The notes below the pieces were generated by a model. That model had not been told where the DNA came from. It was given only the letters and a program-made list of their open reading frames with translations, and did no database searches. 64,000 nucleotides of DNA, from positions 1 through 64,000 of the forward strand of contig JBBSVN010000012.1 of assembly GCA_038046765.1 (NCBI GenBank). Direction: 5' to 3'. Shown in pieces: positions 9,689 through 52,401 of this stretch. The position numbers and the translations under genes are program-made. This stretch comes from Candidatus Micrarchaeota archaeon. Its GTDB lineage: Archaea; Micrarchaeota; Micrarchaeia; Anstonellales; Bilamarchaeaceae. How positions within the stretch are numbered: the stretch's first letter is position 1; every line of letters starts with the position of its first letter.

Positions 9689-10222
9689 TTATTCGTATCG
9701 TATTATTATCTGGTCACCATCTCTTAAAAAGTAATTATTAAATTCAGTGTTTGGTTGACCGTTAACTGCCATCTTAACTGTCTTTCCATTATTATTGCAA
9801 ACATCTAGTATACATGTGCTGTTGAATGTTTTTCCCCATACTTTAAAGAAGTAACCTAGGGTAAGTGTCTCTGGTTTTTTACTTGGATTTAAGTTTTCTA
9901 CGTGTAATCGTCTTCCATTTGAACCATATTCGTCTGCGGCAGAATGTGTATGTATTGGGGATATCCCAGTTTCCATACCTAACGAAGTGTCAATTACATT
10001 GCCTATATTTACACCAATATTTTCCGGGATATATCTTTCCTGCCCGTTTACAAATATTTTCAAATCCGCGTGCCAGTGCGTTGGGGTTGTTGGTAACGGG
10101 TAAGGTGGCTTTAAATTAAAATTTGAATTATCTATTGTCTGTGGTTTGTTGAAAATAAAAAATACTGCTAAAATTGCAACTATTAAAACAACTAAGTATA
10201 TAAAATATTTATTTATGGACAT
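9689..10222 (-). CDS. membrane-anchored extracellular His-motif protein
   Basis: N-terminal TM helix; HWHAD, IHTH and LHVE motifs suggest metal binding. Confidence 0.6.
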   Translation of the reverse strand: MSINKYFIYLVVLIVAILAVFFIFNKPQTIDNSNFNLKPPYPLPTTPTHWHADLKIFVNGQERYIPENIGVNIGNVIDTSLGMETGISPIHTHSAADEYGSNGRRLHVENLNPSKKPETLTLGYFFKVWGKTFNSTCILDVCNNNGKTVKMAVNGQPNTEFNNYFLRDGDQIIIRYE

Positions 10223-10823
10223 AGTAACTAGTTTGAATAAACTTCATTATAAAGTTTGCGAAAGCGTATATGAGCCTGCGGAAGATAGTTTTTTACTAAT
10301 AAAATACACTAAAAATCTAAAAGGAAAAATCTTAGAAATTGGCTGCGGAAGTGGGGTTGTTTGCCTTACTAATGCGCTAAAAAATTCAAAAAATATTGTT
10401 TTTGCCTGCGATCGCAGTAAAGACGCCTTAAAATTAACTCGCGAGAACGCAAAATTAAACAAACTTACAAATGTTAAAATTTTCGAAAGTAATCTGTTCT
10501 CAAAAGTACCAAAAACAGAAAGGTTCGACTACATTCTATTCAATCCACCCTATTTGCCTACTATTAAGGAAGAAAAATTAGTTGGAAATATCAATTACGC
10601 TTATGATGGGGGCAAAGATGGTCGAATTGTTTTGGATAAATTTTTAGGTCAATTTAGTAAATTTCTAAAACCCGGTGGTGCTGTTTTTCTAATCCATAGT
10701 TCACTAAATAATTCAGAGAAAACGATTTCAATTCTATCCAAAAAAGGTTTTGTTGTAAGAACTCTTGAGCAGCAACGCTGTTTTTTTGAAAAACTGATGG
10801 TATTAAGAATTAAGAAAGCATAA
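10215..10823 (+). CDS. HemK2/MTQ2-family SAM methyltransferase
   Basis: VYEPAEDSFLL, LEIGCGSG, FNPPY, GGKDG; start ATG 10215 or a later TTG. Confidence 0.9.
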   Translation: MDIVTSLNKLHYKVCESVYEPAEDSFLLIKYTKNLKGKILEIGCGSGVVCLTNALKNSKNIVFACDRSKDALKLTRENAKLNKLTNVKIFESNLFSKVPKTERFDYILFNPPYLPTIKEEKLVGNINYAYDGGKDGRIVLDKFLGQFSKFLKPGGAVFLIHSSLNNSEKTISILSKKGFVVRTLEQQRCFFEKLMVLRIKKA

Positions 10824-10833
10824 TTATATTGAA

Positions 10834-10893
10834 ATGATGACATGAACAACCTCTGAGGGGCCTAACTCCTGTGAAGATGTCAACAGCGTCTGA
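10834..10893 (+). ncRNA. box C/D guide sRNA; D' guide predicted for 23S Um2552 (E. coli numbering)
   Basis: C ATGATGA 10834-40, 12-nt guide CATGAACAACCT, D' CTGA 10853-56, short hairpin, C' GTGAAGA 10871-77, 12-nt guide TGTCAACAGCGT, D CTGA 10890-93. Confidence 0.85.
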
Positions 10894-10960
10894 TCATATA
10901 TATTTACTATCTTTTTTAAAAATATCCTGGCTTTTTTTAAATTTATCCGAGGGTATTATT

Positions 10961-11506
10961 ATGCATGCGGAATTAAAATTGCCTGTTCGTAATATTCTTG
11001 AAATTTATACTAAAGGCGGCATTCGTGCTAGGCAATTGTTAAAATTAAGCACGTTATTAGCGGAAGGAGTTTTATATTATGGTTTAGCTTCTTCATCTGG
11101 ATCTGCAGTTCATATCTCCGAGCTACCAAAGAATGTTGTCCTAAAAATAATGTCTCCAAGTAACTTACCCCTTTCAGATAGTTCATTTGATGAAGTCCAT
11201 CTCTCTTTTCTAGGTAGGGAAAAAACACGCGAAAAAATAAATGCAGAAATCAAAGAATCTGCCCGTGTTCTTAAGCAAAACGGAGTCCTAATAATTAGCG
11301 GAGAAGTTGATGCAAGAACTCAAGATGGGCAAGATGTCTCACACGTTGTTATTGCTACACTTTCTAGTCTTGGTTTTGTTGTTAATGGCCCAGTTCCAAA
11401 AGAAGAACTTATTTCAACTCCTTTACTTGAAGACATACAAACGACTGTTGGCGATGAAAGTGAAAATGGAAAGTTTTTGATGTTTGCTATGCGAAGAATG
11501 GTTTGA
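10961..11506 (+). CDS. divergent class I SAM methyltransferase-like protein
   Basis: LPLSDSSFDEV and ESARVLKQNG motifs; glycine-rich motif I degenerate; start moved to ATG 10961 because the upstream GTG lies inside the C/D RNA. Confidence 0.55.
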   Translation: MHAELKLPVRNILEIYTKGGIRARQLLKLSTLLAEGVLYYGLASSSGSAVHISELPKNVVLKIMSPSNLPLSDSSFDEVHLSFLGREKTREKINAEIKESARVLKQNGVLIISGEVDARTQDGQDVSHVVIATLSSLGFVVNGPVPKEELISTPLLEDIQTTVGDESENGKFLMFAMRRMV

Positions 11507-24466: not shown

Positions 24467-25465
24467 ATGGTTCAAATGCTTGCACGCTTAGTTGTAGAAA
24501 AAGAACATAAATTAGCACCAATTATACGCGCCCATCCTCTGCTTAGGTGTTTACCTTATAATCAGGCAGTTTATGTCGCAAAACTAATAGGGGAGTTAAC
24601 CGACAGGCAGAATATTCTTGATACAATTAAGATTCCTCAATTATTTACCTCTCGGGAACAAGTTAAGCGAGAATTAAATTTTGCGTTTGAATTTCCTAAT
24701 GATTACAATATTCGTAAATTTATCGAAGCTGCGATGCCAAGATGTCAAGAAGTTCGAGGCTATTTTGACCTTACTAAAGACCAAATTCGAACAATATCCT
24801 CTAAAATTAAGTGCGGAAAAACTTGCGCTTCCATGAATCTTCTATTAACTTCGATACTACAAGATAATGGTTTAGTTTTGCATAGCTATGCTACGTTGTC
24901 CTATGCTGGAAAACCGATCATTGTCACTGTAGAAGCAGAGGTCTTATCTACATTTGGAGAGCCACACATGCCATTTGGGTATTTACTTGACCCTTCGAAT
25001 TATTTTGCATACGATGCTAAAAGTAAAGCGTCAGTAATGCCGCACTTAGGCTGGGCAGAATCAAACTGTTTTTTTGCTTTTGCAGCCAAAACCACAGGCG
25101 AAACTAATAATCTTATTCAGCATGAACTAGATCACGTTTTAGGGATAAGATTAGGGCTTAAATTTGAAAATGTAGAATATAGCGCCCAATTATCTGAAGG
25201 CATTTTTGGCGACCTTTATCTTTTAACAAATCGTTTAGGTATGGTCTATCCTTATGTTACAAGTTTAGACCCACATCATATTGCTGATATAAAAATACTT
25301 GATGAAATTTACGATCAATTTGGATCAGATGTTTTTTATTTCCCATATTTATACGGCGGACCAGATATAAGATCCTTTTTACATGAACGATTAAATTCGG
25401 TTTATTCTCAAGCTAGTGCTATGACTTATGATGAACTTATTGAACCTTTTAAATCTCTCCAATAA
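24467..25465 (+). CDS. putative HExxH metalloprotein
   Basis: QHELDH...EYSAQL; C-terminus TYDELIEPF. Confidence 0.55.
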   Translation: MVQMLARLVVEKEHKLAPIIRAHPLLRCLPYNQAVYVAKLIGELTDRQNILDTIKIPQLFTSREQVKRELNFAFEFPNDYNIRKFIEAAMPRCQEVRGYFDLTKDQIRTISSKIKCGKTCASMNLLLTSILQDNGLVLHSYATLSYAGKPIIVTVEAEVLSTFGEPHMPFGYLLDPSNYFAYDAKSKASVMPHLGWAESNCFFAFAAKTTGETNNLIQHELDHVLGIRLGLKFENVEYSAQLSEGIFGDLYLLTNRLGMVYPYVTSLDPHHIADIKILDEIYDQFGSDVFYFPYLYGGPDIRSFLHERLNSVYSQASAMTYDELIEPFKSLQ

Positions 25466-52278: not shown

Positions 52279-52401
52279 ATGATGACCAAGGTGATCGCTG
52301 AGCCAAGCCCTAAGCTAGTGCTTGATTTCGTGTCAAACGAGATTGAGACAGGAGTAATCCGGCCACGGCCCCATGGCAGTGAAGATTGACGTGCGGTCTG
52401 A
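52279..52401 (+). ncRNA. long box C/D RNA; D guide predicted for 16S Cm1402; 77-nt structured insert
   Basis: C ATGATGA 52279-85, guide CCAAGGTGATCG, D' CTGA 52298-301, insert, C' GTGAAGA 52379-85, guide TTGACGTGCGGT, D CTGA 52398-401. Confidence 0.85.

Follow-up and report, generated by a model that had tools for sequence, protein, structure and literature searches.

The analysed stretch of DNA, referred to here as the window, is 64,000 nt long and belongs to an archaeal assembly of 1.52 Mb that is 89.7% complete (G000). On the forward strand of the window, a gene for a HemK2/MTQ2-family methyltransferase occupies 10215..10823 (open reading frame with an in-frame ATG at 10215; TIGR00537 score of 167.6 bits versus a cut-off of 87). 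Its stop codon (10821-10823) is followed, after the 10-nt gap described in the first-pass annotation, by a candidate box C/D RNA on the same strand at 10834-10893, in which the C, D', C' and D boxes and the two 12-nt guides were all found where that annotation had placed them. As read from the sequence, box C ATGATGA (10834..10840) precedes the D' guide CATGAACAACCT (10841..10852) and box D' CTGA (10853..10856); a spacer that can form a 4-bp hairpin (10857..10869) leads to box C' GTGAAGA, which deviates from the consensus at one position (10871..10877), and the D guide TGTCAACAGCGT (10878..10889) and box D CTGA (10890..10893) complete the RNA. Bases 10830..10832 pair with 10894..10896 as the 5' and 3' arms of a short terminal stem, and two T runs (six T at 10912-10917 and seven T at 10932-10938; 10912..10938 overall) likely represent a putative archaeal-type terminator.

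The box order, the near-consensus boxes and the guide length of about 12 nt agree with the criteria for archaeal box C/D sRNAs. A search of the window for all four boxes with a 12-nt D guide gave a single match, and none of 100 shuffles contained one. A looser box pattern gave two real matches in the whole genome versus zero to three in each of four simulated genomes, which is the chance level; because this pattern is no rarer than chance, the argument for the RNA is built on target pairing and conservation. None of the curated Rfam C/D families (sR1-sR60, snoPyro_CD, SNORD) matched the RNA at the gathering threshold, the best score being 18 bits versus 48, and across the window only a tRNA reached that threshold; several sub-threshold matches of the RNA, all weak, were mostly to C/D families. 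The free folding of the RNA was not better than that of its shuffles (z = −0.72), as is expected where proteins shape the guide RNA. Among relatives, the D'-C' spacer is free to vary in length and sequence: the homologues, among them L138, L147 and L169, have spacers that may be only a few bases or far more than 100 nt long and that often form a hairpin. In 9 of 30 loci, the present one included, the RNA and a hemK2 homologue are separated by no more than about 1.5 kb, and in three of these the RNA follows the homologue immediately and in the same orientation. Archaeal C/D genes usually have no promoter of their own and stand at most 25 nt from the next gene, according to the accessible part of PMC7994747, and co-transcription of the RNA with hemK2, followed by trimming, is likely.

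The 23S gene of the same assembly lies at C15:22669-25819, where the A-loop reads GGGUUGUUCAUC (C15:25484-25495) within the arm GGGUUGUUCAUCC. The D' guide pairs with C15:25484-25494 over 11 positions, comprising ten Watson-Crick pairs and one G-U pair, and its position +5 falls on C15:25488, which we take by established numbering to be U2552 of E. coli. The assignment agrees with its distance of 48 nt from U2504, as measured along the E. coli sequence in the Dennis alignment. The target proposed in the first-pass annotation is thereby upheld, and the 23S sequence assumed for it, AGGUUGUUCG, is not: it is absent from the cognate 23S, which differs at the first base, so that the situation named there as a refutation literally obtains, with a true pairing of 11 positions rather than nine. 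The assumption of a euryarchaeal A-loop also fails, the host being likely a member of Micrarchaeota and not a euryarchaeon. The pairing run of 11 at the A-loop compares with seven at the next-best site in the 23S and 16S of the organism, and the calculated duplex energy is −14.8 kcal mol−1. The ten continuous Watson-Crick pairs, with a Watson-Crick pair at +5, exceed the nine that are demanded of archaeal sRNAs. When the 10-nt guide core was shuffled, a perfect site in the assembled rRNA was obtained for 915 of 200,000 shuffles (0.46%).

The D guide, for which no target had been assigned in the first-pass annotation, does fit a site in the same 23S. It pairs with positions 2501-2510 (C15:25437-25446), 48 nt upstream of the D'-guide site, and places its +5 base on C15:25440, that is, U2504, with one mismatch, an A-C opposition at +8. 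Opposite the guide G at +4 is C2503, a base shared by 79 of the 80 phylum genomes in which this stretch was matched; E. coli and the seven archaea of the Dennis alignment have A at 2503. With a score tolerating one mismatch, 2500-2511 ranked first, alone or jointly, among the 23S sites of five relatives, namely G014, G076, G005, G104 and G032, where the scans of the last three used two common guide variants as the query instead of their own guides. In the 23S of the organism itself, the 2504 site ranks joint third by pair score (6.5 versus 8.0 at C15:25239), and the duplex energy favours the 2504 site (−12.8 versus −10.1 at C15:25239), which is the best of the three sites compared. The D guide passes only the relaxed rule for second guides given by Lui et al. 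in the accessible part of PMC6009581, with 48 nt between the sites, one mismatch and a combined score of 36 versus the 32 needed.

No variation was seen in the target at 2500-2510 across the 103 order genomes matched. Among the matches listed for the order, the D guide is conserved as well as the D' guide, and the guide A opposite C2507, the A-C at +8, is kept in nearly all of them; the looser search pattern used for the D guide also yields chance matches. Two other placements of the D guide were rejected. The anticodon loop of tRNA-Asn pairs in this organism through a 5-base core only, with +5 on U33, and as a second A-loop guide the D guide would reach −5.9 kcal mol−1, and it does not change in genomes with A2555. 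The catalytic centre is divergent here (C15:25436-25495) and in relatives, with A2505 in six families, A2555 in one clade and U2550 in two groups, and the main text of bioRxiv 10.1101/2024.11.12.623245, on divergent archaeal catalytic centres, leaves Micrarchaeota unmentioned in the part available.

The distribution of the guide was determined in relatives. The A-loop guide is present in 144 of the 176 genomes of the order, as the union of a strict pattern (101 genomes) and a one-mismatch pattern (137 genomes) from which one off-pattern match (G111) was removed; reversed patterns, as the control, matched in one and two genomes. In 80 further genomes of the class, which are a subset of 121 and include the unpublished genome G195 as a no-match row on which no conclusion depends, 23 of the 37 that lie outside families f13 and f14 were found to carry the guide, as against none of the 43 members of these two families. 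Five pattern matches in these 43 genomes were dropped as they sit in long open frames; the guide was not found in f13 and f14 with the pattern used, and the A-loops of these families differ. A scan of 42 of the 64 parts of the named-genome set, with the first half of the RNA as the query, returned 119 loci, 70 of which also carry the D-guide core: 64 are labelled Micrarchaeota or one of its subgroups, three are unlabelled archaea, two are labelled 'Ca. ainarchaeum' and one a bacterium. Four records labelled Altiarchaeota share the A-loop guide and have a different D guide. Viral contigs gave three first-half matches, none of which showed the second guide by eye.

Guide and target change together at several positions. 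The A-loop is assembled in 99 of the 176 order genomes, and both the guide and the A-loop are assembled in 80. At position 2555, 11 of these genomes have A2555 with a guide U, 65 have U2555 with a guide A, and two have U2555 with a guide G, giving a concordance of 78/80; the discordance of the remaining two (G135 and G159) possibly results from misbinned rRNA. The 11 genomes with A2555 belong to three genera of a single family, and the U2555A covariation is probably one clade event. Position 2550 is U in three genomes of genus g43, of which G156 has a fully compensated guide and G158 is accommodated through G-U pairing; in G157, a U-U mismatch results. For the D guide, genomes outside the order with A2505 have a guide U opposite 2505 and a guide G opposite C2507 (19/19), and those with G2505 have a guide C opposite 2505 and a guide A opposite C2507 (4/4), so that the concordance at G2505A is 23/23; this covariation is likewise likely one clade event. 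Since each covariation probably reflects a single clade event, the Fisher p-value that was calculated overstates the evidence. Across the D guides, a G-C pair at +6 goes with the mismatch at +8 and an A-U pair at +6 with a G-C pair at +8, as if the duplex strength were held level.

A copy of this dual guide lies inside the 23S gene in seven of 401 phylum genomes (G187, G252, G255, G262, G269, G290 and G363; loci L313-L319), which represent four families. The intron pattern matched 19 times in metagenomes; ten of these matches show the same arrangement (L294, L295, L297-L299, L301, L304, L306, L308 and L311), and nine were discarded as chance matches. The inserts are 100-181 nt long and occupy a single site, presumably near positions 1758/1759 of E. 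coli. Of the 12 distinct inserts, 11 could be parsed, and in each of these 11 a fully paired central helix of 4 bp separates two 3-nt bulges, as the bulge-helix-bulge criteria require; excising the insert in silico restores the motif of insert-free relatives. The flanking helix on the exon side appears weak by eye and corresponds to a relaxed motif. The inserts with the guide are likely bulge-helix-bulge introns whose splicing is predicted. In the six insert genomes that were searched for other copies, the copy within the 23S is the sole match to the guide pattern. A search that lay largely outside the subscription literature found no paper on a C/D guide within an rRNA intron or on C/D RNAs of Micrarchaeota.

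The guide copy in the present window is free-standing and not carried by an intron. The rRNA genes of the organism nevertheless have AT-rich inserts of their own, which are likely introns: two in the 23S (C15 at about 24738-24875 and 25308-25410) and two in the 16S (C3 at about 176-226 and 432-481). C boxes were looked for in these inserts and none was found.

The proteins on which a box C/D RNA depends were to be checked according to the first-pass annotation, and all three are encoded in the assembly, with fibrillarin on C7, Nop5 on C4 and L7Ae on C19. The same check extended to rlmE, and its model TIGR00438 has no match in the organism. Across the 176 order genomes, the best score was 29.7 bits and only partial matches to the SAM motif were obtained; in a further 37 genomes, from sister families or other families with the guide, no match reached E ≤ 1e-8, a level attained by three control archaea and by no guide-bearing genome. 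The curated cut-off of this model is strict, as 2 of 14 controls pass it. No RlmE-grade match was found among 256 related genomes. Because the assembly is 89.7% complete, the absence of an enzyme gene from it falls short of proof. The proposal that Um2552 is made by an RNA guide in place of RlmE holds when it is set against the 23S of the organism, its protein machinery and the 175 other genomes of the order.

A real guide could nonetheless be accompanied by an unrecognised stand-alone enzyme that makes Um2552 redundantly. Redundancy is known in yeast and Thermus uses a SPOUT enzyme, according to the accessible parts of PMC2584109 and PMC12123411, and weak partial rrmJ-like matches of at most 45 bits occur in five genomes of f13 and f14. 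These matches, the only ones in the 80 class genomes, are confined to families in which no guide was found; in the organism itself, the FtsJ-like match is below the cut-off and resembles generic class I methyltransferases, and the SpoU family, which is the third known route to Um2552, has no match, so that we consider redundancy very improbable. In f13 and f14, the loci L240-L243, with partial matches to RrmJ/RlmM/TlyA-like methyltransferases, may represent a protein replacement. It can also be asked whether the locus holds a guide at all, since loose box patterns arise by chance and an open reading frame (10871-11506) that would start from the GTG in box C' overlaps the 3' half of the RNA. 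Chance words or a gene start would leave unexplained that 144 of 176 genomes conserve the RNA while the spacer length varies freely; stops occur within the RNA in all three forward frames, and a likelier start of the downstream gene is the ATG at 10961, with GAGGG upstream. Conservation and covariation refute this explanation, to which we assign almost no probability.

The remaining alternatives concern the D guide. It may be aimed elsewhere, at C15:25239 in the 23S, at a tRNA or at an RNA missing from the assembly: the A at +8 is retained despite its mismatch with C2507, C15:25239 offers nine consecutive pairs, and a 12/12 genomic match exists at C5:14831. In G014 and G076, however, the site at C15:25239 does not rank with the best, and by arithmetic, chance alone would give about 0.2 matches to a 12-mer in 3 Mb. 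The 14 tRNA candidates of the organism and the 26 of 35 tRNA loci of G014 that could be oriented score at most 5 versus 6.5-8.5 at 2504; 16S loci of G032 gave comparable D-guide scores (8.0), the only such case. About 500 nt of the 16S and most tRNAs are unassembled or were undetected in the target set of the organism, and given this incompleteness, another target in its own genome is possible; as a replacement for the 2504 site, we regard a different target as improbable. Alternatively, only U2552 is methylated, and the D guide at 2501-2510 serves as an anchor or folding aid without Um2504. The conserved mismatch at +8 is in accord with such a role, Um2504 was not met in the literature search, and dual guides have been proposed as rRNA chaperones in the accessible parts of PMC7994747 and PMC6009581. 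Against it, the A-U2504 pair at +5 is Watson-Crick in every D guide among the matches listed, for which the search patterns fixed that base; hemi-complex activity in vitro is not lowered by mismatches beyond positions 3-5 (PMC1635284); and the A2505 clade has no mismatch at +8. An anchor without methylation appears unlikely to us, although it deserves more weight than a different target.

We thus favour, with strong confidence, a dual-guide archaeal box C/D RNA that is complementary to the 23S of its own organism and likely directs 2'-O-methylation of U2552 and probably of U2504. Taken part by part, we have little doubt that the RNA would work as a guide for Um2552, and we regard methylation of U2504 as probable too. 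In the proposed mechanism, the RNA would be trimmed out of the 3' end of the hemK2 transcript, its C/D and C'/D' kink motifs would be bound by L7Ae, and Nop5-fibrillarin would then be recruited. Pairing of both guides with the nascent 23S would precede the closure of helices 89-92, and fibrillarin would methylate the ribose opposite the fifth guide base upstream of each D or D' box.

A second box C/D RNA, in which 78 nt are inserted between D' and C', was observed in the window at 52279-52401 on the forward strand. The D guide of this RNA fits the 16S with one U-C mismatch at +6, and its +5 base faces what is presumably the equivalent of C1402. Full-looking homologues occur in four of the five relatives searched, and the match in the fifth looks like chance. 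The D guides of the two RNAs (10878-10889 and 52386-52397) each have one conserved mismatch to the target. These two RNAs were the only convincing intergenic C/D candidates that the scans of the 1.5-Mb assembly gave, and both are aimed at core functional sites. In the whole assembly, 11-12 tRNA candidates were detected, and the tRNA genes at C5:82848-82940, C7:5251-5347 and C5:35680-35814 have, by eye, apparent D-loop or double introns.

RNA-guided formation of Um2552 has already been described or predicted for Pyrococcus, Methanopyrus, Nanoarchaeum and yeast. In the accessible part of Dennis et al. 2015 (PMC4644070), U2552 is a predicted guide target in five of seven archaeal species, and Methanopyrus kandleri sR17 and Nanoarchaeum equitans sR10 are expressed box C/D sRNAs whose D' guide matches the A-loop of their own host in the register of the present RNA. 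Their D guides are unrelated to the present one, their hosts are hyperthermophiles, and no intron-borne form of them is described in that part of the paper. Pyrococcus abyssi sR25 and yeast snR52 share with the present RNA a route to Um2552 through fibrillarin/Nop1 (accessible parts of PMC2584109 and PMC12123411), whereas RlmE/RrmJ/MRM2 and RlmR give the same product as protein-only stand-alone methyltransferases, for which neither the organism nor the order has a credible match. A guide within an intron of the RNA that it modifies has a precedent in sR50 of the archaeal pre-tRNA-Trp intron, as given in the accessible part of PMC7994747; there the host is a tRNA, whereas in the intron-bearing relatives it is the 23S rRNA. 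At the sequence level, the present RNA has every feature expected of an archaeal box C/D sRNA, and it lies outside every curated family.

At the level of the phylum, the evidence leans towards one guide family that would mark U2552 and an apparently undescribed Um2504 in a divergent catalytic centre (C2503, A2505, A2555). This family would exist in two forms, a free gene and a spliced 23S intron, and in the latter each rRNA precursor would release its own guide. The locus itself holds an ordinary kind of RNA, and it shows a likely way in which archaea with reduced genomes that lack RlmE keep a near-universal mark of the A-loop. The guide family offers a natural series of compensatory changes in which guide-target pairing can be followed, and a modification at U2504 is predicted from it. 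If it is spliced and active, the 23S-intron form would extend the self-guide principle of tRNA-Trp to ribosomal RNA.
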